NCBI GenBank assembly: GCA_963804975.1
Contig: CAWDSG010000002.1
Coordinates: forward strand, 53,554-117,553
DNA: 64,000 nt
Direction of reading: 5' to 3'
Source of the DNA: an uncultured bacterium
GTDB taxonomy: Bacteria > Patescibacteriota > Minisyncoccia > Phycocordibacterales > GWA1-40-21
The translations under genes were made by a program, and so were the position numbers. Positions 3,875-16,259 of this stretch are shown piece by piece (the stretch's first letter is position 1; each line of letters opens with the position of its first letter). A model generated the notes under the pieces. The model worked only from the letters and a program-made list of their open reading frames with translations, was not told where the DNA came from and did no database searches.

Positions 3875-4396
3875 TTAAAACAAATCTATATCCACGTATT
3901 TGATGATAACGCGCCTGTCTTTACCTTCGCCTATTGATTCAGTTTTGACATTCGGTTTGCCGCTGAGCGCTCCATGGACTATCAACCTTTCGTAAGAGGA
4001 CATTGGCTCCATTTCCACATTCGATCTCATAAGGCGCGCTTTGTCCGCAAGCGCTTCGGCTTTTGACTTTAATCTTTCGATCATGCTGGATTTATAATCG
4101 TTGATGTCAATGGAAAAATCGCCCGCTTCTTCGGATCCTTTCTGCGCCATTCTTCGCAAAATATGCGTGATGGCATTCAGTGTTTCTCCTCCTTCTCCGA
4201 TCAAAATCCCTGATTCTTTTGTTCTGATTACGAATAAATTGTTTCCTCCTAAAGAATCTTCAACTATTTCAACACTGTCAAATCCTATGTTCATAAGCTC
4301 AAGGAAACCTTCTATCATGGATTTGATAGCTGTTTTTTCGGTTTGGGATAGAGATTTTTTGCTGTGATCTTTTTTTGTAATTGTTTTTTCCTCCAT
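3875..4396 (-). CDS. jag: Jag/KhpB-like R3H-domain RNA-binding protein
   Basis: C-terminal R3H-like ERLIVHGALS...ESIGEGKDRRVIIKY. Located immediately downstream of yidC, the classical position. Confidence 0.7.
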   Translation of the reverse strand: MEEKTITKKDHSKKSLSQTEKTAIKSMIEGFLELMNIGFDSVEIVEDSLGGNNLFVIRTKESGILIGEGGETLNAITHILRRMAQKGSEEAGDFSIDINDYKSSMIERLKSKAEALADKARLMRSNVEMEPMSSYERLIVHGALSGKPNVKTESIGEGKDRRVIIKYVDIDLF

Positions 4397-4400
4397 ATTT

Positions 4401-5150
4401 TTATTTTACCATATTATTTGCTTTATTTTTTCTTTTTACGTATATTTCCTGGCCAATGGCGAATAAACTGCTTGTGATCAAATAGAGTGCCACGACAGCG
4501 GCAAAGTTCCTGGCAATAACGAATATGACTATCGGCATGATATATTTCATTTGCATATTCATGCTTCGCGATAATTCATCTTTGAAATTCGGCCCCGTTT
4601 TGGCGTCTTGATTCTTTTTGGGGACTTTCGGCATAATAATTTGCATTTGCAAAAACTGCGCGACCGCCGCCAGAATGGCAAAAAGTGTGCTCTTGCCGGC
4701 GACATTAATGCCAAAAAATGTCACGTCAATTACACTCGGAATTTTTGTGAAAGAATAAATAATCGTGTGATTCAGGTTCGGCAAACCGCCTCGTAGAAAT
4801 ATGTAATATAAAGCCATCAGTATAGGCAGCTGTATAAGCATCAGAAGAATCCCCGAAAACGGATTGATCCCTCGTTCTTTATATAAACGCATTGTCTCTT
4901 CGGCTTGTTTTTGCTTATTATCCTTGTATTTCAATTTCAATTCATTGAGCTCCGGTTCCAGCCGCTTCATTTCAAACTGGGTTTTGACGGATTTCTGGGA
5001 AAGAGGGAAAAGAATAATTTTAATTATTATGGTAAAAAGAATGACCGCCACTCCGACATTGTGAAACGGAATAATCGCGATAAAAAATATCAGCGCGTTG
5101 TAAAGCGGCGTATAAAAAACAGCTTTTAATAAAGCGTGCATAAAATCCAT
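4401..5150 (-). CDS. yidC: membrane protein insertase YidC (short form)
   Basis: Multi-TM protein with the conserved YidC/Oxa1 core GINPFSGILLMLIQLPILMALYYIF. Sits in the rpmH-rnpA-yidC-jag context. Confidence 0.85.
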   Translation of the reverse strand: MDFMHALLKAVFYTPLYNALIFFIAIIPFHNVGVAVILFTIIIKIILFPLSQKSVKTQFEMKRLEPELNELKLKYKDNKQKQAEETMRLYKERGINPFSGILLMLIQLPILMALYYIFLRGGLPNLNHTIIYSFTKIPSVIDVTFFGINVAGKSTLFAILAAVAQFLQMQIIMPKVPKKNQDAKTGPNFKDELSRSMNMQMKYIMPIVIFVIARNFAAVVALYLITSSLFAIGQEIYVKRKNKANNMVK

Positions 5151-5492
5151 TCTATACGAAAATCGGTGATTTTACAATCTGTTTGACAAAAAATTTATAA
5201 TATGCTAAGCTTTTAATATCTCGCTTGAAGGAGGAGAATGGCAAAGGGAACTCGCAAAGTCTAGCCAGCTTGTAGCAGTTTTTTGTAGAATCTTATTCTG
5301 CTATAGAGATTTCCAAAAAATTTTTATAATTTTCTTTTTTGTTCTTTCTAGAAAAAATAATAATTGTGTAAAACTAGTCAGGGGTCAGGCTTTAAATCCA
5401 CCCTGCTCAATCGTTTGCCAACTTTCCTAAAAAGAAATTAAACACAAACATTGAACTCAGAAATAATTAGGTCTTATCTGGGGACCAGCTCG

Positions 5493-5882
5493 TCATATAT
5501 TTCCTTTACTGGAACTAATGGCGAGCTTATTTTTTATATAAAATCCGACTTTTTTCAGAATTTCATCAATATCTTTTTTTATTTCGGAATAAGAAATTGG
5601 TTTTTCGGTTTTTTTAGGAAAGAAAACGATTGTTTTTTTGAAATTTTCGTTCATTTTTTTTAAATTTTCCTCAATAGCCGCGCTTATTTTTCTTTTTATC
5701 CGGTGCCGGCCGACAGATGTTTTTTCTATTTTTTTTGACACAACGATGGCAAAACCCGGCATATTGGCATTTTTCTTTGAAACTTTTGCATGCAAATAAT
5801 TTTCGGATACTGCCATCCCATTTTTTATTGCATTTTCTATGTCAGCCCTTGCAGCCCTGAATTTTCTTGATAGCATCAACAC
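5493..5882 (-). CDS. rnpA: ribonuclease P protein component
   Basis: Basic protein with GRHRIKRKISAAIEE-type motif. Directly downstream of rpmH. Confidence 0.8.
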   Translation of the reverse strand: MLMLSRKFRAARADIENAIKNGMAVSENYLHAKVSKKNANMPGFAIVVSKKIEKTSVGRHRIKRKISAAIEENLKKMNENFKKTIVFFPKKTEKPISYSEIKKDIDEILKKVGFYIKNKLAISSSKGNI

Positions 5883-5936
5883 ATTATATCCGTAAGATTA
5901 TAAAAACAAAAATCCGCCAGAAGCGGATTTTTGTTT

Positions 5937-6086
5937 TTATCTTCTTTTTTTAGAAACAGAGAGTTTGGCTCTGCCTTTCTGCCTTCTCCTTTTTATAGTG
6001 TTTCTGCCGTATTTGCTCTTGCTTCGCGCGAGAAAACCATGAGTTTTCGCTCTTTTTCTTTTATTTGGCTGATACGTAAACGACAT
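5937..6086 (-). CDS. rpmH: 50S ribosomal protein L34 (below the size cut-off of the six-frame ORF list)
   Basis: Reverse-complement translation of 5937-6086 gives [49 protein letters not shown] (49 aa). This is the canonical L34 pattern, divergent from dnaA. Confidence 0.85.
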
Positions 6087-6297
6087 AAAGAAAGTATAAA
6101 CCAAAAAAGAAAAAATGTAAAGCTTGTTCAGATAAAATTTCAGGTATAATTACAAACCTCCGAACACTCGATGTTTTTTATAAAATTTGAATTTTTTTTA
6201 TTTTTGTTTTTTAATTTTACTAATCCACTTTTTATGAACACTTTGTGAACAAAAATAAATTTTAGAGAAATTCCATATCAACCTATAATTAAACCCT

Positions 6298-7629
6298 ATG
6301 ACAGATAATAAAATCCTTTGGAATAATGTCCTCGCCCAAATAGAACTTGGCATTTCTAAAGCAAATTTCAGCATGTGGTTTAAAGATACATATATCGTAA
6401 AACAGGAGGACGGCATGGTATATTTGGGAGTTCCGAATATTTTTATAAAGGACTGGCTGATGAATAAATACCATAAAGATATTATTAAAAATCTCAGGAC
6501 TTTCGGAGAAAATGTAAGAAATGTGGAATATTTGGTCTCGAAAGAAGAAAATAAAACCCATATCAAAGAATCAACAAATGTAAGCGAGCTTCCCCTCAAT
6601 GATTTTTACATAAATAAAGAAGATAATCTGAATCCTAAATATACTTTCAAAACATTTGTTGTCGGCCCGTTCAACGAACTTGCCTATGCGGCCTCGCAGG
6701 CGATTTTGAAAAGAACAGCTACTTACAATCCTCTTTTTATTTTTGGAAGCACCGGCCACGGTAAAACGCATTTGATTCAGGCGATAGGAAACCAATTTAA
6801 AGAAGACGATCCGAGCAAAAAGATTTTTTATATGACAAGCGAGCGGTTTGTAAACGATTATTTGAATTCCCTTAACAGCGGCGAGATCAATACTTTCAAA
6901 GAGAAATATAAAAAATATGATGTTTTGATTATTGACGATATACAATTTATTTCGTCAAAAACAAAAACTCAGGAAGAATTTTTTCATCTTTTCAACAGTT
7001 TTCACGACAGCGGAAAACAACTGATATTCTCGTCGGATAAGCATCCGAATTTCATAACCGATATAGAAGACCGCATCAAATCAAGATTCAATGCCGGCAT
7101 GATTCTTGAAATTCAGAAACCGGATTTTGAATCAAGGATCCAGATATTCAGGAAAAAAGCGTCTCTGATGAATCTGGCTCTTTCAAACGAAACGGTTGAA
7201 TTTTTGGCTTCATTTGTTGAAGGCAATATACGCGAACTTGAAGGTGTTTTGAATTTGATTCTATGCCAGACCCACTTAAAAAATAAGGAATTGAATATAA
7301 GTGAAATTAAAGATCTGCTTAAAAACACATCCAAACCGAAGAAAAATGTGTCCGCAAAAGATGTAATGAGGGTTGTTTCCGATTTTTACGGGATAGACGA
7401 ATCCAGTGTATCCGAAAAAGGGAGAAAAAAGGAGGTTATCAAGCCAAGGCAGGTAATTATGTATATTCTGAGGGAAGATTTTGATATTTCGTTCCCGTCA
7501 ATAGGCGATAAGGTGGGAAACAGGGACCATTCCACAGTTATCCACTCGTATGAAAAAATCAAAAATGATCTTAAAAACAATCCTGAGCTCGTCCAGGAAA
7601 TAGAGCATATCCGTTCAATGTTGAAATGA
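6298..7629 (+). CDS. dnaA: chromosomal replication initiator DnaA
   Basis: Walker A GSTGHGKTHLIQAIGN, Walker B VLIIDDIQF, and a C-terminal DNA-binding domain. Sits in the canonical rpmH / dnaA-dnaN context. Confidence 0.95.
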   Translation: MTDNKILWNNVLAQIELGISKANFSMWFKDTYIVKQEDGMVYLGVPNIFIKDWLMNKYHKDIIKNLRTFGENVRNVEYLVSKEENKTHIKESTNVSELPLNDFYINKEDNLNPKYTFKTFVVGPFNELAYAASQAILKRTATYNPLFIFGSTGHGKTHLIQAIGNQFKEDDPSKKIFYMTSERFVNDYLNSLNSGEINTFKEKYKKYDVLIIDDIQFISSKTKTQEEFFHLFNSFHDSGKQLIFSSDKHPNFITDIEDRIKSRFNAGMILEIQKPDFESRIQIFRKKASLMNLALSNETVEFLASFVEGNIRELEGVLNLILCQTHLKNKELNISEIKDLLKNTSKPKKNVSAKDVMRVVSDFYGIDESSVSEKGRKKEVIKPRQVIMYILREDFDISFPSIGDKVGNRDHSTVIHSYEKIKNDLKNNPELVQEIEHIRSMLK

Positions 7630-7639
7630 TTGTTTATAA

Positions 7640-7824
7640 TATATGGAGAAGTTATGGAGAGTTTGTTTGAGAAGTTGTTGAGAAAAGTTTGATAAGAAAT
7701 AGATCAAAAAATAAACAACTAATAACAAACATGAGATATTTAAAAAATTAAAAATTAAACACAAAAAACAAAGGTTAAAAAAATATAAACATAAGAACAA
7801 TATTAATAATAAATATATAATAAT
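7640..7824. promoter_or_regulatory. candidate oriC element: short GAGAAGTT-type direct repeats plus a very AT-rich stretch between dnaA and dnaN
   Basis: Motifs ggagaagtt, ggagagttt, gagaagttg and gagaaaagtttga lie within about 60 bp. An AT-rich run of over 100 bp follows, running up to the dnaN start. Confidence 0.35.
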
Positions 7825-8925
7825 ATGAAAATAGAATGTATAAAAGAAAAACTCCATATCTCCGTATCAAAAGCGGAAAAAATTGTCAGTAGAAATCAGA
7901 ATTTACCCATCCTTTCTTGTTTATTATTCCAGACAAAAGGAAATAATCTTATAATAAAATCAACCAATTTGGATTTGGGTTTGGAAATTTCCATTCCGGT
8001 AAAAGTGGAAGAGCAGGGTATTGTGGCTATTCCTGCAGGAATAATAAGCAGTTTTTTAAATAATTTAAACGAAAACAAAAATATTTCACTGGAAACAAAA
8101 GAGGGAGTTTTGAGAGTTTATACAGAAAACAGCGAAGCAAACATAAAAACACTGCCACACGACGATTTTCCTACAATTCCGCTTGTTGATAACGGCAAAA
8201 TATGCAAAATGAACTCAAAAGATCTGGGGAATGGAATCAAATCGGTCATTTACAGCGCGTCCACATCTTCTGTGAAGCCGGAACTTTCAAGTGTTTATGT
8301 ATATTCAATGGAAGATCATCTGGTTTTTGTGGCAACGGACTCATTCCGCCTTGCGGAAAAAACCATAAAAACAAAGAAAAACATGAATCTTCCCGGCATT
8401 CTCATACCGTTTAAAAATGCCTCGGATATTTTAAAAATAATCGACACAACCGACGAAGAAATAGAAATAAATTCAACAAAAAACCAAATATCTTTCACTT
8501 TCGGAGGATTATACCTTGTTTCAAGAGTCATAGACGGGGTATTTCCGGATTACAAACAGATCATACCAAAAGAAGAAAAGACAAAAATCACAGTTTTAAA
8601 GCAAGACCTCATAAATTCATTAAAACTATCAAGCATTTTCTCGGACAATTTCAACCAAATAAACATAAATGTCCAAAAAGGGGCAAAATATGTCCAGATT
8701 AAAACCAAAAATTCAAATATCGGAGAAAACACGAATAAAATAGACGCGACAACGGAAGGCGAGAGTATTGAAGTGAATTTTAATCACCGATATATCGTAG
8801 ATTGCTTGCCGTCAATTTTCTCAGACAGCGTATCTTTGTTTTTTAACGGCATAAACAAACCGCTTATCATAAAAGGGACTTCCGATAAGACATTCATGTA
8901 TTTGGTTATGCCGATGAACAGATAA
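7825..8925 (+). CDS. dnaN: DNA polymerase III beta sliding clamp
   Basis: 366 aa with typical DnaN N-terminus MKIECIKEKLHISVSKAEKIV...LPILSCLLF. Immediately downstream of dnaA. Confidence 0.9.
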   Translation: MKIECIKEKLHISVSKAEKIVSRNQNLPILSCLLFQTKGNNLIIKSTNLDLGLEISIPVKVEEQGIVAIPAGIISSFLNNLNENKNISLETKEGVLRVYTENSEANIKTLPHDDFPTIPLVDNGKICKMNSKDLGNGIKSVIYSASTSSVKPELSSVYVYSMEDHLVFVATDSFRLAEKTIKTKKNMNLPGILIPFKNASDILKIIDTTDEEIEINSTKNQISFTFGGLYLVSRVIDGVFPDYKQIIPKEEKTKITVLKQDLINSLKLSSIFSDNFNQININVQKGAKYVQIKTKNSNIGENTNKIDATTEGESIEVNFNHRYIVDCLPSIFSDSVSLFFNGINKPLIIKGTSDKTFMYLVMPMNR

Positions 8926-8953: not shown

Positions 8954-10372
8954 ATGGAAAAAATTGGCGAAAAATGCGGGATTTTTGGGGTTTATGGAAA
9001 AGGATTGGATGCAAGCCGTCTGACATTTTTTGGCTTGTACGCGCTCCAGCACCGGGGACAGGAAAGTTCCGGAATAGCATCGTCCGATGGCAAAAAAATA
9101 TACTGCTATAAAAATACAGGACTTGTTTCCCAAGTATTTAATGAAAATAAAATAAAAAAATTGCCGGGATTCATAGCAATCGGACACAATCGATATTCCA
9201 CCTCATCCGGCACAGGCAGAAAACATGCTCAGCCGATTGAAGTTTCGGACAAAAGCATAGTTCTGGCTCATAATGGCAACCTTCCGTGTATTTCCAAATT
9301 GACGGATTTTTTAAAAAAGAAAAATATTGTATTGAAAAATGCTTCCGACTCCACAATCATAACCGAAGCGTTGCATTGTCTGGCAAAAGAAGGGATGAAG
9401 CTCGAAAAAGCCGTTGAAAAGATTTTTTCTCTTATCACCGGCTCGTTTTCCATTCTTATAATGAATAAAGAAAAAATAATCGCCATTCGCGATAGTTGTG
9501 GCATACGTCCTTTTTCCATAGCTAAATTGAACGGCGGATATGTTTTTTCTTCGGAAACTTGTGCGTTCCATCCGATTGGCGCGGCTTTCATAAGAGATGT
9601 AAGGCCTGGAGAAATGATCGTTGTTGATAAAAAAGGATTGCGAAGCAGGCAGATTATAAAAGGAAAGCAAAAACTTGATATTTTTGAATTTGTTTATTTT
9701 TCAAGGCCGGACAGTATTCTACTTGGCCAATCTGTTTACGAAGTGAGGAAAAGATTCGGCGAGCGGCTGGCTAAAGAGTACCCGATAAAAGCGGACATAG
9801 TCATTCCCGTGCCCGAAACAGCCATTCCTGTCGCAATCGGCTATTCAAACGCTTCGGGCATTCCGTATGAAGCTGGTCTCGTAAAAAATAGATATATTCA
9901 CAGGACATTTATCGAGCCAGAACAACATATAAGAGAGCAGGGAGTCAAATTGAAACTGGCGCCTCTCAAAGAAATGATTGCCGGCAAGAAAATCGTCATC
10001 GTAGACGATTCTATCGTAAGAGGAACGACTTCAAAACAGATAGTAAAAATGCTTTTTGATACAGGAGTGAAGGAAGTTCATTTTTTAGTCAGCTCTCCGC
10101 CGGTGAAATTTCCTGATTTTTATGGCATTGATATTCCTGATCCAAGAAAACTTCTCGCTTCCGCAAAATGCGTGGAAGAAATGAATAAATTTCTCGGCTC
10201 TACATCATTAAATTTTCTTTCGTATCAAGGAATGATAAAATCCACCCATATTCCGGAATCGTCTTTTTGCACATCCTGCTTTACCGGCATTTACCCGATA
10301 GATATCGGGGAGAGGAAGAAAGTAATATGCGAAAATTATACGAATGATACGAATGAACAACGAAAATTATAA
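8954..10372 (+). CDS. purF: amidophosphoribosyltransferase (glutamine PRPP amidotransferase)
   Basis: N-terminal nucleophile Cys in CGIFGV, PRTase motif IVIVDDSIVRGTT, and a C-terminal Cys cluster CTSCFTGIYP. The ATG at 8954 is preferred over the upstream TTG at 8933. Confidence 0.85.
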   Translation: MEKIGEKCGIFGVYGKGLDASRLTFFGLYALQHRGQESSGIASSDGKKIYCYKNTGLVSQVFNENKIKKLPGFIAIGHNRYSTSSGTGRKHAQPIEVSDKSIVLAHNGNLPCISKLTDFLKKKNIVLKNASDSTIITEALHCLAKEGMKLEKAVEKIFSLITGSFSILIMNKEKIIAIRDSCGIRPFSIAKLNGGYVFSSETCAFHPIGAAFIRDVRPGEMIVVDKKGLRSRQIIKGKQKLDIFEFVYFSRPDSILLGQSVYEVRKRFGERLAKEYPIKADIVIPVPETAIPVAIGYSNASGIPYEAGLVKNRYIHRTFIEPEQHIREQGVKLKLAPLKEMIAGKKIVIVDDSIVRGTTSKQIVKMLFDTGVKEVHFLVSSPPVKFPDFYGIDIPDPRKLLASAKCVEEMNKFLGSTSLNFLSYQGMIKSTHIPESSFCTSCFTGIYPIDIGERKKVICENYTNDTNEQRKL

Positions 10373-10378
10373 AAATAA

Positions 10379-10756
10379 ATGGGAAAAGAACAAAAAGTAA
10401 GCAGTAAAGTATTATATCCGGAATTATCTTATAAAATAAACGGCATTTTATTCTCAATTCATAATGAAATGGGTATTTTTGCGAGAGAAAAACAATACGG
10501 AGATTTGCTTGAAGAAAAATTAAATGAAAACAATATAAAATATGAACGCGAAGTAAGAATATCAGACACCGGCGACATTGCTGATTTTATCGTTGAAGAT
10601 CAGATAGTCTTAGAATTAAAATCAGAAAGATTTATAACAAGAGATAATTACAGGCAGATTCAAAACTATCTGCAACAAACAAGATTAAAATTGGGGATTC
10701 TGGCAAATTTCAGAAGCAAGTTTTTAGTTCCAGTTCGTGTTATCCGCATAGATTAA
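10379..10756 (+). CDS. GxxExxY-family protein (PD-(D/E)xK-like)
   Basis: Family pattern seen: N-terminal HNEMGIFAREKQYGDLLEEKL, IVLELKSE, and C-terminal KLGILANFRSKFLVPVRVI. Confidence 0.7.
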   Translation: MGKEQKVSSKVLYPELSYKINGILFSIHNEMGIFAREKQYGDLLEEKLNENNIKYEREVRISDTGDIADFIVEDQIVLELKSERFITRDNYRQIQNYLQQTRLKLGILANFRSKFLVPVRVIRID

Positions 10757-10814
10757 GAATTAAAAGTTTTCGCAGACATTCGTAATATTCGCATAATTTT
10801 CGTATAATATTAAT

Positions 10815-11069
10815 ATGTTTGATATAGGAAAATATCTGGAAAAATTCAAAAAATTCTCGCAGTCGCGGGATTTTTTGAGAAATTCCGTCGCCGAAGCGAT
10901 AAAAGAAATCTGCAATATTGAAATTGATCCGAAAAAAATTGAAGTGAAAAATGGAATTGTCAGAATCAGCGAAAAACCGGTGATAAAAACAGAAATTTTC
11001 CTGAAAAAATCAAAAATTCTGAATAATTTAAAAGAAAAGAAACACATTGACATTTTTGACATTATCTGA
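10815..11069 (+). CDS. small hypothetical protein (possibly DUF721/DciA-like)
   Basis: 84 aa, basic, near dnaA/dnaN. Only loose resemblance to DciA-type proteins. Confidence 0.3.
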   Translation: MFDIGKYLEKFKKFSQSRDFLRNSVAEAIKEICNIEIDPKKIEVKNGIVRISEKPVIKTEIFLKKSKILNNLKEKKHIDIFDII

Positions 11070-11150
11070 TATCATTTCAATTGGAGTAAACATTCGTGTT
11101 TATCGCTTGCTCTCTTTAAAATAAAATAAGAAAAAGAAAGGGGACTGGTT

Positions 11151-11942
11151 ATGAAAAATAACTCTGCCCAAAAGAAGGAAATCCGTCTGGCGACTGCCGG
11201 ACAGATAAAGGATCTCTGCGCTGTAGCGGTGCAAGGAATCCCGGCAAAAGTTGCTTTTGGAGATGCCGAAGCCGCACTTCTCAAAAAAGAGCGGTTGGTG
11301 AAGCATATTCAAAACTTTTTTCGCCAATTACCAACCGAATTACCTAGGAATCTCGCCGAAGCCCTTGCTGAATCCGAAGCGTTTACCAGGGAGTGTTTCG
11401 GTTTGAAAAACATTCCTTCGCTGTCCAAGCTTTTTGTTTTGCCGGAAAAACTGCCGTACGATGTTTTCGCGGCTTTTGTTCCCGCCGGCGCGGATTACCG
11501 CGATTGCGTAAATGCGATGAAAAAAGCCAGGAAGGGTCTCGCTGTTTACGAAGAGGAGGATGTGAACAAGTACTCCAATTCGCAAGCGGTGGACAAATCA
11601 CGTCTTTATCTCATTGAGCGTTCAGAACGCCCAAATAAAGACACGATGGGTTTGTCTCCGGATAAACTCATTGAAACGGGGAAAACTTTTCTCGGCCTCG
11701 GTCCGTACGCTGTTGTGATGGGACAATACCACATGGCAACGGGGAAATACTTGGATCTGGAAACATGGACTTGGTTTCCAAAAGATCGGCTTCTGGATAA
11801 GAATGGTTGCAAGACTGGCGAGGTCGCGAACGGCGACTGGCGCCCGGACGGCACGAGGGTCGGGTTCGGCTGGAGCATCGCGGCGGGCGAGTACGCCTGC
11901 GCCGGTGCTCGCTTGGCAACCGAGGTTCCCCTTAAATCTTAA
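11151..11942 (+). CDS. DGR target (variable) protein; C-terminal 33 codons form the variable region
   Basis: 263 aa with no signal peptide. GC is clearly elevated versus flanks. The C-terminus GEVANGDWRPDGTRVGFGWSIAAGEYACAGARL is encoded by the VR. Confidence 0.75.
   Translation: MKNNSAQKKEIRLATAGQIKDLCAVAVQGIPAKVAFGDAEAALLKKERLVKHIQNFFRQLPTELPRNLAEALAESEAFTRECFGLKNIPSLSKLFVLPEKLPYDVFAAFVPAGADYRDCVNAMKKARKGLAVYEEEDVNKYSNSQAVDKSRLYLIERSERPNKDTMGLSPDKLIETGKTFLGLGPYAVVMGQYHMATGKYLDLETWTWFPKDRLLDKNGCKTGEVANGDWRPDGTRVGFGWSIAAGEYACAGARLATEVPLKS
11817..11916 (+). repeat. DGR variable repeat (VR)
   Basis: A 100-bp copy of the TR. There are 16 mismatches, all at positions where the TR has A (A to G/C/T). 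A 16-bp GC-rich shared 3' end gccggtgctcgcttgg is IMH-like. Confidence 0.85.
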
Positions 11943-11964
11943 AACTTTTTTTCTTAATCCTTAC

Positions 11965-12006
11965 ACTGCATTGAATGGCCCCCATAGCGTTCAATGCAGT
12001 TTTTTT
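11965..12006 (+). terminator. perfect 11-bp stem hairpin plus T-run immediately downstream of VR (DGR homing hairpin and/or terminator)
   Basis: Stem actgcattgaa ... ttcaatgcagt with a 14-nt loop tggcccccatagcg, then tttttt. Confidence 0.6.
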
Positions 12007-12182
12007 ATATAATAAAAACGGCTGTTAAGCTGGTTTTGCAAAAACAAAACGACAGTTTGCCAAAATATAGAAATTGCTTGCTATTTTTTATACTAAGCTC
12101 GCAAAACCTCGGGAAAAACGCAGAAAATTTTGTAAAAGATTTTCGGTGATATGGACGAAAGATGGCAATAAAGCTTCCCAGT

Positions 12183-12282
12183 GGCAAGGTCGCGAACGGC
12201 AACTGGAACCCGGACAGCACGAAGGTCAGGTTCAACTGGAACAACGCGGCGAACGAGAACGACTACGCCGGTGCTCGCTTGG
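12183..12282 (+). repeat. DGR template repeat (TR), rich in AAC codons
   Basis: About 27 adenines, including roughly nine AAC triplets in the VR reading frame. Lies within a 54-codon micro-ORF (12162-12326). Followed by the hairpin aaaggagc..gctccttt. Confidence 0.85.
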
Positions 12283-12303
12283 AAATTTCTCGCAAAAAGG
12301 AGC

Positions 12304-12609
12304 TTAACTGGCTCCTTTTGTGTTGATATAATTGAGCCATCCATTAGCCATTTTTGAAATTTCTATAATCTGGTTTGAAAGATGAAGATAACAATTTTCC
12401 CCAATAATACAAAGCTCTTTTTCCGTTCTTATGAGATTTTGCAAAATATTGATTTTAATTCTCAATAATTCCAAGGATTCTTTCTTGGCAATTTTTGATT
12501 TTAAAGCTGATTCTATGGCAAGAGACAGTATTTCAATGCAAGTTTTTTCCACAAGAGCGTGTATTCCCAATTTATCTCTTTTGGAAAGTTTTTGGCTCAA
12601 GACATACAA
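12304..12609 (-). CDS. avd: Avd-like four-helix-bundle protein (23S rRNA intervening-sequence protein family) - DGR accessory variability determinant candidate
   Basis: C-terminal ...LELLRIKINILQNLIRTEKELCIIGENCYLHLSNQIIEISKMANGWLNY matches the conserved helix 3-4 pattern of the family (EExxxLxxxLEEIxKMLNGLI). Positioned between the TR and the RT but on the opposite strand. Confidence 0.6.
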   Translation of the reverse strand: MYVLSQKLSKRDKLGIHALVEKTCIEILSLAIESALKSKIAKKESLELLRIKINILQNLIRTEKELCIIGENCYLHLSNQIIEISKMANGWLNYINTKGAS

Positions 12610-12637
12610 ATCTTTATATAGTATTCTTATTTTATGA

Positions 12638-13684
12638 ATGATAGGAATATTGTCTGCGGGGGGGGGGCGTCATAGTTTGAATTTTTATGATGTAATATCT
12701 GTTAAAAATTTATTTGAAGCTTGGCAAAATTTTTCTAAAAACAAAAAATCAAAAACGGAAGTTGCCAAGTTTGAATTGAATCTTGAAGAAAATCTGTTTA
12801 ACTTACATCAAGAATTGATGGCCGAAATCTGGAATCCGAAACCATATATAAAATTTTCTGTTTGCGACCCGAAACTCCGCGAAATACACAAAGCCGATAT
12901 AAGAGATATGATTTTATATCAAGTTGTGTACCAATCATTATACCAGATTTTTGACCTGGTATTTATTTTTGATTCATATTCATCAAGAAAAACAAAAGGA
13001 ACTCATGCGGGAGTTGAAAGATTTGTGGAATTTGCGAGAAAAGTTTCAAAGAATTACAAAACCGGCGGATATGCTTTGAAATGCGACATTAGAAAATTTT
13101 TTGATTCAATAAACCATAAAATATTGATTGGTTTTATAAGAAAGAAAATTACTGACGAAAAACTTATGGCAATTATTGAGAAAATAATATATTCATTTGA
13201 AAAAAGTCCGGGCAATGGTTTGCCGCTCGGCAATGTCACAAGCCAGCTTTTTTCAAATATTTATCTCAATGAACTTGACCAATTTATCAAACACAAACTG
13301 AAAGCGAAATATTACATAAGATATTGCGATGATTTTGTGATTTTAAGCGACACTTTGGAGTTTTTAGATTTTTGCTTATTAAAAATTAAAGATTTTTGTT
13401 CAAAACACCTTTTAATAGAGCTTCATCCAAATAAAATCCATATACAAAAACTTAATTCGGGAACTGATTTTCTAGGATATGTTTGCTTGCCTCACAGAAA
13501 AGTTTTGAGAACAAAGACCAAAAACAGGATTTTGAAGAAAATAAACAAATTAAAAATAGATTTTAATGATAGAAAAATAGATCAAGAAAAATTGGAGCAA
13601 ACTATGCCATCTTATTTGGGAATGTTAAAACATTGCAATGGCGAGAAGATAAAGGAACAAATAGAAAGAATTTTTACTGATTAA
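12638..13684 (+). CDS. DGR-type reverse transcriptase
   Basis: RT motifs are present, with the YxDD box as YIRYCDDFVIL. The DGR-specific LGNVTSQ sits where group II intron RTs have QGxxxSP. A G10 homopolymer runs through codons 7-10, so the exact 5' end is uncertain. Confidence 0.9.
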   Translation: MIGILSAGGGRHSLNFYDVISVKNLFEAWQNFSKNKKSKTEVAKFELNLEENLFNLHQELMAEIWNPKPYIKFSVCDPKLREIHKADIRDMILYQVVYQSLYQIFDLVFIFDSYSSRKTKGTHAGVERFVEFARKVSKNYKTGGYALKCDIRKFFDSINHKILIGFIRKKITDEKLMAIIEKIIYSFEKSPGNGLPLGNVTSQLFSNIYLNELDQFIKHKLKAKYYIRYCDDFVILSDTLEFLDFCLLKIKDFCSKHLLIELHPNKIHIQKLNSGTDFLGYVCLPHRKVLRTKTKNRILKKINKLKIDFNDRKIDQEKLEQTMPSYLGMLKHCNGEKIKEQIERIFTD

Positions 13685-16259
13685 TCGTAATCGGTATCGT
13701 AATATCTCCCTCGTTGTACACACTGTCATACACCACAACTTTCAATTGGTTTGTTCCTATAATGAGCGAATTGACCGAAGATGGCACGAAATTAAGCACA
13801 AACGGCGAAGTATCAGAAGTGCCTATCAATTGGTCGTTTAAGTAGAAATTTGCCCGCGCCGCAGGGTAGTTTGAATTTATGGAGGGCGATACTGTAATCC
13901 TGCTGTTCTGGCTATACTGCGCAGTTGAATTCGGCGATAAAATATTTATTTTCGGTTTGTTTGCCGCGGTATGTACATCATCATAAGTGGTTGGTTTTTG
14001 AACAACGGGCTGTGGATGTGCCGAAATCCATTGTTGCACTCCATATTCCCAAGAATTAAATTGTGCGTCATCGCTCGGATTTGAAGGCGGAGGGCCGTTT
14101 GGATTTGATTTGTCCACCCAATACAAAACAGAATGGATATTCGGCACAGCCACTTCTTCTTTTGTTTCAGGCGGAGTCGTATCGGTCGCGAGCTTGCCTG
14201 AAATTTTGTCTATAAAATACGTATCATCGCCCTGCCAGATTCCGCGGAGCACCGGTTTGAGTGTCTGATCAACCGGCTCTGGTTTTATAAAATCATCCAC
14301 AGATGTGCTTGCAAGCGCGGCGGCCATCAACTGTTGCCAAAGCGGCGCGATAATCAGCCCCGCGACATTTTTTACCATCGGCGTGTTATCATTATTTCCC
14401 GCCCATGCTCCCACAGCGATATCGGGCGTGTAGCCGAATGTCCATACGTCTTTATAATCGTTCGTAGTCCCCGTCTTTGCGGCAACTTGCCTTCCAGAAA
14501 ACATGAAAACGGAGTTTGTCCCGTATTCCGGCGCCTTGGCCGCATTGTCCGACAGAACATCATTCATAATATCCGCAATATTCTGTTGTAAAACTTGCTG
14601 GCTGTTCGATGTGTACTGCTCGACAATATTCCCGTTTGCGCCTTCAACTGAAAGAATGCCCGTGTAAGGATTTCTTACGCCTTCATTTGCAAAAACTCCA
14701 TAAGCGCTTGTCATATCAAGAAGCGAAACCTCTCCTCCGCCGAGAACAAGCGTAAGGCCGTATTGATTCGGATCGTCCGAAAGAGTCGTGATTCCCATTA
14801 CCTTTGCCGTATTGAGCGAATCTTGCTGTCCCGCGAGATAAAAAAGCTTGATGGAGGGAATATTTAAAGACAAATCAATCGCGGTTCGGAGCGTTACAGG
14901 GCCGCGATACAATCCGTCAAAATCCTGAGGCATATAGCATGCCGTGGACGATGATATTACCGTATCGGGATTGATCTGCTGGCCTTCCGGTGTGCATGTG
15001 CTTTGAAATTCCGTCGGGACATCAAAAAGAACGGTGTCCGGAGTATATCCTTTTTCAAAAGCGGTCGCATAGATGAAAGGTTTGAATGTCGAGCCCGGCT
15101 GTCTGTGGGCCAAAGCCACATTAAACTGTCCGTCAGTCGTTGTGGAAAAATAATCGCTTGAACCTATCATGGCGAGAATTTGCCCGGTTTTCGGATCAAT
15201 GGCGACGGCGGCCGTGTTTGACGCGTTGAAATTCTTTTCAAGCGTAGGCATATAATTTTTTATTATCTCTTCCATTTTTGCCTGCAGATTATAATCAAGC
15301 GTTGTGACGACTTTGTACCCGTTTTGCATAACGGCATCTTCGCCATATTTACCCACAAGATATTGTTTGATGAATTGCACGAAATGCGGAGCGAGGATAC
15401 CGGTCGGAGACGGGGGCAGAAACTGCACATTTTCTTTTATCGCTCCATCGTACTCTTCCTGCGTGATAAATTTATTGTCAAGCATTTTTTGCAGGACCAG
15501 ATTTTTTCGCGCATCAAGCTCGTTTTTATTTTGCCCGTATGGAGAATAATATGTCGGAGCGTTTGCTATGGCGGCGATGTACGCGGCCTGCGCAAGCGTG
15601 ACGGATGCCGAACTTGTGCCGAAAAACATCTGGCTTGCTTCCTCAACGCCGTAAATATTTCCGCCGTAAGGATTTTCGTTGAGATAAATCGAAAGTATAT
15701 CGTTCTTACTCATTGTTTTTTCAAGCTCAATCGAAAGCACCCATTCTTTCAATTTTCTTGAAATCGTTTTCTCGTTTGTCAGAAGAGAATTTTTGATGAC
15801 CTGCTGGGTTATTGTCGAGCCACCCTGGCTGAAACTGCCGGAAAGGATATCGGCGAATATTGAGCGTATGATGGAAGTTACTTTTATTCCGCCATGCTGG
15901 TAAAAACCGGGATCTTCTATCGCAATCGTCGCATTTTTCAGGTTCTGGCCGATTTCATCAAAAGGCATTACAGTCCTTTTTTCGCCTTGATGGATATCAT
16001 AAAGCAACACGGTGCCTGTCCTGTCATATATTTTTGTGGACTGGGTTACTTTTATGGCGCTAAATGAAGAAAGGTCCGGCAGTTTGAAAGTGGAGACCCA
16101 AAGGGCAAGCAAACCTGACCCGACCAAAAACAAAAAAATCAAACCCCAGAAAATTTTTTTCCTCGTGCTGATTTTTGTCGAAAGGGCGTCTTTGCGCAAA
16201 GAATGGACGACTCTTTTTGTTTTTGCCTTTATATCCGATATTTCCAACATAGTAGGCAA
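13674..16259 (-). CDS. bifunctional class A penicillin-binding protein (glycosyltransferase + transpeptidase) with C-terminal extension
   Basis: GT motifs EDPGFYQHGGI and GGSTITQQ, TP motif STFKPF, and an N-terminal TM anchor. The roughly 150-aa C-terminal extension is of unknown function. Confidence 0.9.
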   Translation of the reverse strand: MPTMLEISDIKAKTKRVVHSLRKDALSTKISTRKKIFWGLIFLFLVGSGLLALWVSTFKLPDLSSFSAIKVTQSTKIYDRTGTVLLYDIHQGEKRTVMPFDEIGQNLKNATIAIEDPGFYQHGGIKVTSIIRSIFADILSGSFSQGGSTITQQVIKNSLLTNEKTISRKLKEWVLSIELEKTMSKNDILSIYLNENPYGGNIYGVEEASQMFFGTSSASVTLAQAAYIAAIANAPTYYSPYGQNKNELDARKNLVLQKMLDNKFITQEEYDGAIKENVQFLPPSPTGILAPHFVQFIKQYLVGKYGEDAVMQNGYKVVTTLDYNLQAKMEEIIKNYMPTLEKNFNASNTAAVAIDPKTGQILAMIGSSDYFSTTTDGQFNVALAHRQPGSTFKPFIYATAFEKGYTPDTVLFDVPTEFQSTCTPEGQQINPDTVISSSTACYMPQDFDGLYRGPVTLRTAIDLSLNIPSIKLFYLAGQQDSLNTAKVMGITTLSDDPNQYGLTLVLGGGEVSLLDMTSAYGVFANEGVRNPYTGILSVEGANGNIVEQYTSNSQQVLQQNIADIMNDVLSDNAAKAPEYGTNSVFMFSGRQVAAKTGTTNDYKDVWTFGYTPDIAVGAWAGNNDNTPMVKNVAGLIIAPLWQQLMAAALASTSVDDFIKPEPVDQTLKPVLRGIWQGDDTYFIDKISGKLATDTTPPETKEEVAVPNIHSVLYWVDKSNPNGPPPSNPSDDAQFNSWEYGVQQWISAHPQPVVQKPTTYDDVHTAANKPKINILSPNSTAQYSQNSRITVSPSINSNYPAARANFYLNDQLIGTSDTSPFVLNFVPSSVNSLIIGTNQLKVVVYDSVYNEGDITIPITINQ

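Follow-up and report, generated by a model that had tools for sequence, protein, structure and literature searches.

How can a diversity-generating retroelement (DGR) rewrite its target gene when the gene for its accessory protein is assembled out of frame with its own start codon? The question is raised by positions 11151-13684 of a 64-kb stretch of contig CAWDSG010000002.1 (assembly GCA_963804975.1; the whole stretch is called the window below, and positions refer to it). This region is almost certainly a DGR, here carried on the chromosome of a Paceibacterota-like bacterium of the candidate phyla radiation (CPR) and of the TR-(avd)-RT type, with a template repeat (TR), the accessory gene avd and a reverse transcriptase (RT) gene next to a target gene that ends in a variable repeat (VR). 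Taken together, the comparative evidence makes it probable that the element belongs to an active DGR family and that the mutagenesis machinery of this family is gated by slippage at a run of ten G, or ten C on the avd strand, in the overlap of avd and RT.

An adenine-specific retroelement with avd assembled out of frame

The VR and the TR form an ungapped 104-nt match (offset 366) with 17 mismatches. All 17 fall at TR adenines and none at other bases, an outcome with a chance probability of ~9e-12 given the 30 A per 104 nt of the TR. An earlier note on this DNA, written from the sequence alone, had counted 16 mismatches between 11817-11916 and 12183-12282, and realignment reproduced them, each with A in the TR and G, C or T in the VR; the 17th, C at 11917 in the VR against A at 12283 in the TR, lies beyond the 100-bp limits of that note. 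The string of AAC codons described there as a DGR hallmark is also present: 29 of the 30 TR adenines occupy codon position 1 or 2 of the target frame, and eight AAC codons occur in the TR when read in the frame of the VR. The substitutions in the VR are confined to codon positions 1 and 2 and change 13 codons.

The RT matches RVT_1 (E 3.7e-20) and carries the DGR-type GxxxSQ motif previously proposed for it, as G-N-V-T-S-Q within LPLGNVTSQ, together with YCDD; both motifs are invariant in three lineages. Its closest solved relative is the RT of the Bordetella phage DGR (8ub7, E 1.7e-34), compared with 2e-17 for the best group II intron RT. Other kinds of RT were considered and rejected: the group II intron model TIGR04416 scored 132.9 against a cutoff of 300 with no Rfam intron RNA match, and retron and Drt defence models scored far below their cut-offs with no Rfam retron RNA match.

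The Avd-like gene suspected between the TR and the RT proved to be a minus-strand open reading frame (ORF) that matches both the bAvd Pfam family and the NCBI DGR Avd model (NF033474, E 1e-8). As assembled, this ORF encodes only 101 aa from a TTG codon and scores 37.3 bits against PF22296 (cutoff 40), matching the profile from position 15, whereas a frame-corrected protein of 122 aa scores 42.2 bits and spans positions 3-106. The avd frame stays open and conserved upstream of the TTG, where all five differences between the window and a related locus (L001) in IPIIHKIRILYKD are synonymous. A start at TTG 12609 was rejected, as the codon is not generally conserved and its equivalent is TTA or CTA in L005, L049 and L050. 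With ten C in the tract, the frame opened by the avd ATG stops after 13 codons; with nine or 12, an Avd of 122 or 123 aa results, starting MTPPPADNIPIIHK. In nine related contigs (L004-L012), avd was left uncalled altogether. The element had been described as complete, and this holds for the RT, the TR, the VR, the target and the body of avd; the exception is the start of avd, which is separated from its body by a tract of the wrong length.

The tract is the sole G or C run of at least 7 nt in the 64 kb. It reads Pro-Pro-Pro in avd and Gly-Gly-Gly in the upstream RT frames, and because CCC is the rarest Pro codon (11.8%; P 0.0016 for three consecutive CCC), a pure C run is not explained by coding need. 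It also persists as a homopolymer across lineages with saturated synonymous sites. The N-termini of avd and RT overlap antisense by ~40 nt in a shared codon register, since each primary ATG is antisense to a His codon of the other gene: the RT ATG at 12634 faces the His codon of the Avd IIH motif, and the avd ATG faces a His codon of the RT frame. One tract length thus frames both primary ATGs. The RT has a second upstream ATG at 12638, in frame at G10 or G13 (the first is in frame at G9 or G12), and a TTG at 12677, 3 nt from the avd ATG. Because the RT of this genome retains both ATG 12638 and the post-tract TTG, only avd is cut off here; many relatives have no RT start after the tract, and in these the RT must read through it.

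Tract length differs between otherwise very similar sequences. The Logan assembly of ERR10755942, independent but of the same strain, has 0 mismatches over 3520 nt to window positions 10259-13775 and a tract of 13 instead of 10, and two avd-RT modules that are 87% identical have tracts of 7 and 9 with identical flanks. Lengths range from 6 to 10 nt in related lineages. We compared each C-run with the length needed to put the avd ATG in frame. Like the window, L017, L021, L022, L047-48 and L049 have 10 where 9 are needed, L042-46 have 9 where 8 are needed, L001-3 and L050 have 8 where 9 are needed, L004-12 have 7 where 8 are needed, and L060 has 6 where 5 or 8 are needed; all of these are out of phase. 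The tract is in phase in L018 (9, as needed) and in L020 and L051-56 (10, as needed), and L019 has no tract and both ATGs in frame. A uniform programmed frameshift was rejected on this basis, as lineages differ in needing a +1 or a -1 correction. Two further tracts of 5 (L057, ~2379) and 7 (L058, ~2505), in contigs 98.6-99.3% identical to L051, were discounted because these contigs contain 12-13 gap openings and genes broken into fragments.

The out-of-phase lengths 8, 7 and 9 were reproduced in 3, 9 and 5 independent short-read assemblies, respectively, and hence are not random errors. Among the out-of-phase window, L001 and L005, the ratio of nonsynonymous to synonymous divergence (dN/dS) of avd is 0.10, 0.12 and 0.22 with saturated dS; by this measure, avd is under strong purifying selection and is not decaying. 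Of the 120 nearest RT clusters (P0180-P0299), 28 read through GG(G) from a pre-tract start and 55 are called, at the protein level, with starts inside or after the conserved N-terminal motif, a ratio of ~1:2 that equals the random-phase expectation; a further 22 have starts directly past the tract position, and the feature is absent from 15. This pattern suggests that disruption of the 5' frame, and hence mis-annotation, is common in this clade of CPR DGRs. The window's own RT was not among the matches of the RT cluster search, though its target (P0001) and 101-aa Avd (P0156) are in the collection.

To compare VRs between samples, we used loci retrieved via their Avd protein, which is unbiased with respect to the VR. 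Across the in-phase loci L051-56, differences from L051 number 20, 20, 20, 2 and 2 positions, all at TR adenines; L053 has no difference from L051 outside the VR in 4.4 kb, and L052 and L055 have, besides their VR differences, a divergent stretch upstream. The out-of-phase pair L047 and L048 shows 10 VR differences, nine of them at TR adenines, with one difference elsewhere in 2.6 kb, and in the out-of-phase pair L042 and L043 all eight VR differences are at TR adenines. Outside the VR, L053, L048 and L043 differ at no more than one site over the remaining kilobases. VR heterogeneity at TR-adenine sites, which the earlier note had named as a check, is therefore seen between samples of sister lineages, with 79 of 80 tallied differences at such sites. 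DGRs of this clade thus diversify in nature, including those with an assembled out-of-phase tract. In L047 (645-2022) and L048 (1917-3294), neither avd nor RT has an in-frame canonical start (C10 where 9 are needed; the RT is called at 258 aa).

Proposed slippage at the tract and its alternatives

The tract is selected as a homopolymer, is unstable in length and has a random phase across lineages, and the genes that it joins are intact and constrained. Together with recent activity even in out-of-phase lineages, these facts exclude simple decay and random sequencing error, and they require some slippage-based route to an in-frame product. By analogy with known slippery loci, a reversible slipped-strand change in the DNA would be the most economical such route. 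In the mechanism that we favor, modeled on the Bordetella phage element, a complex of RT and Avd would bind the TR RNA and copy the TR into cDNA, misincorporating opposite adenines; the cDNA would then replace the VR up to its GC-rich end, which resembles an initiation of mutagenic homing (IMH) site, and as many as 13 codons of the ligand-binding face would be rewritten. Tract slippage would be needed to make Avd and, in many relatives, also the RT; it would most likely be a reversible slipped-strand change of DNA length, possibly aided by RNA slippage, with hypermutation limited to a stochastic minority of cells or to a low level. A stricter version, which treats the tract as a genuine contingency switch for the mutator, with one slippage toggling the Avd ATG and in most relatives the RT ATG as well, is plausible but is proposed here only tentatively. 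Such a CPR lineage would toggle lectin-fold hypermutation stochastically, with most cells genetically stable and a minority exploring variants. This would amount to second-order phase variation, a random switch controlling a diversity generator, and, given the 28 in-phase and 55 truncated RT calls, would be widespread in a large clade of CPR DGRs.

Several observations weigh against gating by the tract. No in-phase allele was found within any lineage sampled without bias (lengths 8, 8 and 8 in one, 7 in nine assemblies of another). The lengths 10 and 13 are of the same phase, and ON and OFF lengths are seen only between lineages. Out-of-phase L042/43 and L047/48 show recent VR diversification, such that assembled phase does not predict activity; this result fits transient switching, RNA-level rescue or an irrelevant tract alike. 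In the window lineage itself, the VR is identical in both assemblies compared. Avd can also start 3' of the tract, because L022 and L060 have a canonical TTG directly before the PIIH motif and two protein clusters begin with MPIIH. Lastly, homopolymers are prone to sequencing error. We stop short of calling the tract a proven contingency locus, since such loci are defined by ON/OFF polymorphism within a strain and none was observed.

The main rival to DNA slippage moves the correction to RNA or translation, where polymerase slippage, or +1/-1 slippage of tRNA-Pro on CCC-CCC-CCC, would restore the frame in a small constant fraction of products. Avd would then be made at a low level whatever the DNA length, and the process could coexist with slippage of the DNA. 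Transcriptional slippage at long homopolymers is known to rescue frameshifted genes in AT-rich endosymbionts. Here it would suit the recent VR diversification of out-of-phase lineages, the constancy of the out-of-phase length across the 3, 9 and 5 independent assemblies of three lineages, and, if the polymerase is what slips, the need for +1 and -1 corrections in different lineages. However, DNA length change clearly occurs, both with identical flanks (10 versus 13) and between the 87%-identical modules (7 versus 9), and tracts of 6-8 nt are short for efficient polymerase slippage. We regard this rival as unlikely, but as the one to be taken most seriously. Less probable is that the tract lies outside the avd coding sequence, with Avd starting downstream at a near-cognate ATT or ATC or at a lineage-specific TTG or ATG before PIIH; the G run would then be kept as a ribosome-binding site or 5' leader of the RT and its length would be neutral. 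The roughly random 1:2 distribution of in- and out-of-phase lineages would follow, the TTG of L022 and L060 could serve as such a start, and P0170 and P0174 begin with M where the window has ATT (12648-12646). Furthermore, 9 nt separate the end of the G run from the RT TTG in the window, L001, L005 and L049, and the target gene has a GGGG-type Shine-Dalgarno sequence of its own. Set against this, every lineage keeps an ATG that precedes the tract by one to three codons, while the neighbors of this ATG vary, and the ATG opens the full frame in tract-less L019 and in the in-phase lineages. Between the tract and the conserved helix, a canonical start is missing in most lineages, the window ATT has no Shine-Dalgarno sequence before it, and a mere leader does not suit the many relatives whose RT must read through the tract.

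Two further explanations are less likely still. If the element were a decaying or silenced relic, the avd frameshift would be inactivating and the VR/TR differences would record past activity only. Besides the assembled frame and the VR shared by two assemblies of this lineage, the absence of VR variants of the target proteins P0001, P0002 and P0007 from their 90% clusters is in line with this. But the RT, the TR, the RNA helices and the avd body are all intact, dN/dS values of 0.10-0.22 at saturated dS in three out-of-phase lineages are impossible for long-dead genes, out-of-phase sister lineages diversify, and the sole change between the two assemblies sits in the tract itself; a relic is thus quite improbable. 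Least credible is that every gene is really in frame and the out-of-phase lengths arose as errors of sequencing or assembly. Homopolymers of 10-13 nt are error-prone, the two indel-rich related contigs show 5 and 7, and one set of reads may underlie both the 10 and the 13 call. Nonetheless, lengths of 7, 8 and 9 are exact in 9, 3 and 5 independent short-read assemblies from the JGI, ENA megahit and Logan pipelines, long genes elsewhere on these contigs and in the window are intact, and the mistakes would need to be both systematic and lineage-specific.

Repeat ends, target protein and structured RNA

The coordinates of the element's features are collected in Table 1. Beyond the last variable site, the VR and the TR share a GC-rich block, CGCCGGTGCTCGCTTGG, at 11900-11916. 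The earlier note had recognized this identical GC-rich end, which is 17 bases long rather than 16. It is followed by the 17th mismatch, where the VR reads GGCA and the TR GGAA. The same GGCA/GGAA difference recurs at the equivalent site in L001, L005, L021, L022 and L051, and L019, L017 and L042 have TG opposite AA there. Because a difference at this site recurs in related elements, we read the 17th mismatch as a fixed difference of the IMH/IMH* type, with a putative function in homing, rather than as a product of random mutagenesis. A search with a degenerate TR, in which N stood for each A and which was used both entire and cut into 30-nt pieces, found just the known VR and TR and no second VR in the 64-kb window, which therefore holds a single target.

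Table 1. Features of the retroelement in the window
Feature	Position	Strand	Description
Target (variable protein) gene	11151-11942	+	263 aa; N-terminal helical region and C-terminal C-type-lectin/FGE-like domain
VR	11816-11919	+	Match to TR
IMH-like VR end	11900-11919	+	Identical block, then fixed C at 11917
Intrinsic terminator of target gene (predicted)	11965-12007	+	10-nt loop; dG -17.9 kcal/mol, z -5.0
TATAAT box	12008-12013	+	Putative -10 of separate TR-RNA unit
Structured TR RNA	12019-12322	+	~304 nt; leader helices P1, P3, P3a and P3b, TR, long-range P2, 3' hairpin P4
P1	12019-12032 with 12053-12062	+	RNAalifold consensus
P2, 5' strand	12069-12075	+	AGAAAUU; pairs with 12284-12290
P3	12078-12089 with 12157-12168	+	Nine covarying pairs
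P3a and P3b		+	Two small hairpins in leader of TR RNA
TR	12182-12285	+	Template of VR
P2, 3' strand	12284-12290	+	AAUUUCU; overlaps last two TR bases
P4 hairpin	12291-12322		Between TR and avd 3' end; avd stop codon in loop
avd	12304-12673	-	ATG 12673-12671; body in frame with ATG only at tract 9 or 12
avd ORF as assembled	12304-12609	-	101 aa, TTG start
G10 tract	12658-12667		C10 on avd strand
DGR reverse transcriptase	12677-13684	+	335 aa from TTG

The base composition of the target, VR and TR had been called markedly higher in GC than the DNA on both sides. The values are indeed elevated (target 45-49% and VR 59%, versus a window mean of 39%), but the contrast is due mainly to low-GC flanks, namely avd, the RT and small upstream ORFs at 27-33% GC. 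The nearby PBP gene is mostly 42-50%. A foreign high-GC island was rejected, as the target resembles the PBP gene in GC and just the VR/TR and the low-GC flanks stand out. The upstream ORFs, just before the target, encode a GxxExxY/PD-(D/E)XK_3 protein (10379-10756) and an 84-aa product (10815-11069), both at 27-33% GC; the same pair occurs in L059, and L001 instead has NT5C and other small ORFs.

The target gene is preceded by a GGGG-type Shine-Dalgarno sequence, and its VR covers residues 223-256, the last 34 codons but seven. No Pfam or NCBIfam model matches the protein, and its family comprises 195 representatives at 50% identity, with no meaningful Pfam domain in any of the 83 members scanned. 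Lacking a lectin signature recognizable by eye, the target had been regarded as atypical; the AlphaFold model does not bear this out. It is confident (predicted local distance difference test, pLDDT, 90) and shows a C-type-lectin/FGE-like fold, as in Mtd, TvpA and TaqVP, with the VR on the last beta-strands. If the model holds, the target is a canonical lectin-fold variable protein of a new sequence family. Sequence identity to the lectin-fold proteins TvpA (2y3c), TaqVP (5vf4) and Mtd (1yu0) and to FGE-like enzymes is only 5-12%. In contrast to TvpA, TaqVP and Mtd, the target is small (263 aa), has a poorly conserved three-helix N-terminus and lacks a signal peptide, lipobox or transmembrane segment. 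The absence of a signal peptide and transmembrane segment agrees with the earlier note and was assessed by a hydropathy scan only (maximum KD(19) 1.09).

Downstream of the VR, the hairpin previously taken for an 11-bp structure has a 13-bp stem (11965-11977 with 11988-12000) that begins 46 nt past the VR and is followed by U7. Because the U7 is directly 3' of the stem, this hairpin is best read as an intrinsic terminator. Relatives have a hairpin and a T-run of unrelated sequence at the equivalent place. A TATAAT box comes directly after the terminator in eight of ten aligned lineages; it is a putative -10 element of a separate TR-RNA unit, and the transcript ends that we assign to this unit are likewise putative.

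The ~170 nt from the target terminator to the TR and the 40 nt 3' of the TR are better conserved than the target protein. We derived an RNAalifold consensus from a ten-lineage alignment and controlled it with 500 shuffles and with slid partners. The consensus has 53 pairs, and pairing is kept in 94.6% of the alignment cells on the structure. In 28 of the 53 pairs, pairing survives changes on both sides, compared to 14.6 +/- 2.3 in shuffles (0 of 500 reach 28) and 5-7 with partners slid. In P2, which joins the leader to the segment just after the TR, six pairs are invariant and one covaries (U-A in six lineages, C-G in three and U-G in one). The P4 stem shows compensatory changes among the ten lineages and is a candidate bidirectional terminator, Avd-binding stem-loop or both. 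An Rfam scan of 11700-12800 with E up to 1 gave chance matches only, and complementarity alone did not locate a cDNA priming site in the TR RNA. In the Bordetella DGR RNA, a duplex between segments upstream and downstream of the TR is required and a stem-loop just after the TR binds Avd, and such elements were reported in 207 of 278 DGRs, CPR included (Handa et al., doi 10.1101/2023.10.23.563531). By analogy, P2 and P4 fit this scheme.

Setting, comparison with known systems and significance

The order target(+), TR, avd(-), RT(+) corresponds to architecture B3, TR-(avd)-RT, to which 90% of CPR DGRs belong (Wu et al. 2018, PMC5758913). The inversion of avd, singled out earlier as unusual, is thus the norm in CPR DGRs. 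In gene order, orientation, single adjacent target, CPR host and a VR that is not classifiable by sequence, the element matches the B3 group, with no architectural difference, and is a member of it (PMC5758913). It is a CPR B3 DGR, a known kind, with a lectin-fold target of an uncurated family.

The window has yidC, dnaA (6298-7629) and dnaN (7825-8925) upstream of the element and PBP1A and TyrRS downstream. A Paceibacterota metagenome-assembled genome (MAG) with a 59%-identical target repeats the layout target(+), avd(-), RT(+), PBP1A(-), TyrRS(+) beside dnaA and dnaN. No relatives of the RT were found in IMG/VR, and with dnaA, dnaN, PBP1A and TyrRS as neighbors, a prophage origin was rejected; the element is chromosomal and vertically inherited. 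It lies ~3.5 kb from the dnaA-dnaN origin region (jag/KhpB-like, yidC, dnaA and dnaN; 3875-8925), with the target pointing away. An origin-proximal, away-pointing target is common to the window and the related MAG (compare L001 1-4211), and a 2026 study reported that BPP-1 retrohoming favors targets oriented away from oriC (PMC12875486).

Related loci provide two further observations on the mobility of the element's surroundings and parts. The nine contigs of one lineage, L004-L012, all break off ~150 nt 5' of the target, whose start lies at 68-181, and an rve-type transposase is present at that break in L013 (183-1175), such that an insertion sequence copy probably adjoins the DGR. Between L005 (900-2800) and L042 (reverse complement), the avd-RT modules are 87% identical, yet TR, VR and target fall into different sequence classes; the TR and the target appear to have been exchanged as a unit between closely related RT-avd modules.

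Among DGRs with a solved structure, the closest point of comparison is that of phage BPP-1 (mtd-avd-TR-brt), whose RT is the nearest solved relative and shares GxxxSQ. Both systems have an Avd-family accessory protein, adenine-only TR/VR differences with AAC codons, and a GC-rich IMH-like VR end with a difference that distinguishes TR from VR. As in the BPP-1 cryo-EM ribonucleoprotein, a segment upstream of the TR pairs with one downstream and a stem-loop follows right after the TR. There are also differences. The BPP-1 element resides in a phage, whereas the present one is chromosomal and near the origin region. Here avd is inverted with its start overlapping the RT start, the TR sits in its own terminator-bounded unit, and a conserved structured domain of ~160 nt precedes it. 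The 140-nt downstream spacer of BPP-1, with its primer and RT-binding elements, is absent; 7 nt and one hairpin follow the TR instead. Where BPP-1 has a GC-rich cruciform beside the IMH, this element has a terminator hairpin 46 nt past the VR, and the homopolymer tract has no BPP-1 counterpart.

The tract itself has parallels in poly-G/C contingency loci, which undergo phase variation by slipped-strand mispairing in Campylobacter, Neisseria and Haemophilus. Like those loci, it is a run of 7-13 G or C that lies a short way into a coding region in an AT-rich genome, differs in length between near-identical genomes, and occurs as in- and out-of-frame alleles across relatives with the gene body under selection. 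Unlike them, it lies in an antisense overlap of two genes, where one length change affects both, and under its control would be a device for mutagenesis, not a surface structure. The literature that we searched, which did not include Paul et al. 2017, describes no antisense overlap of the avd and RT starts, no shared G/C tract or tract phase distribution in DGRs, and no covariation-supported, leader-dominated DGR RNA structure. A search for DGR or avd together with homopolymer, slipped-strand, phase variation or frameshift returned nothing relevant.

Little is known about how DGRs are regulated: to our knowledge, phage life cycles aside, no natural switch has been defined that turns them on or off. 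Rewriting a functional protein without restraint carries a cost, and DGRs are most abundant in CPR bacteria. Were the tract irrelevant, the locus would simply be a further typical DGR of CPR bacteria, whose lectin-fold target belongs to a new and unannotated family. The comparative data point instead to a simple means of control: a slippery homopolymer where two mutagenesis-machinery genes overlap antisense, conserved across a large clade of CPR DGRs. The covariation-supported RNA provides a second, independent handle and can be used to test the generality of the cis-priming mechanism. If gating by the tract is true, it would account for the many avd and RT genes of CPR bacteria that annotation shows as truncated or missing, and these ultra-small symbionts would hedge their bets on DGR activity through the mutator itself.

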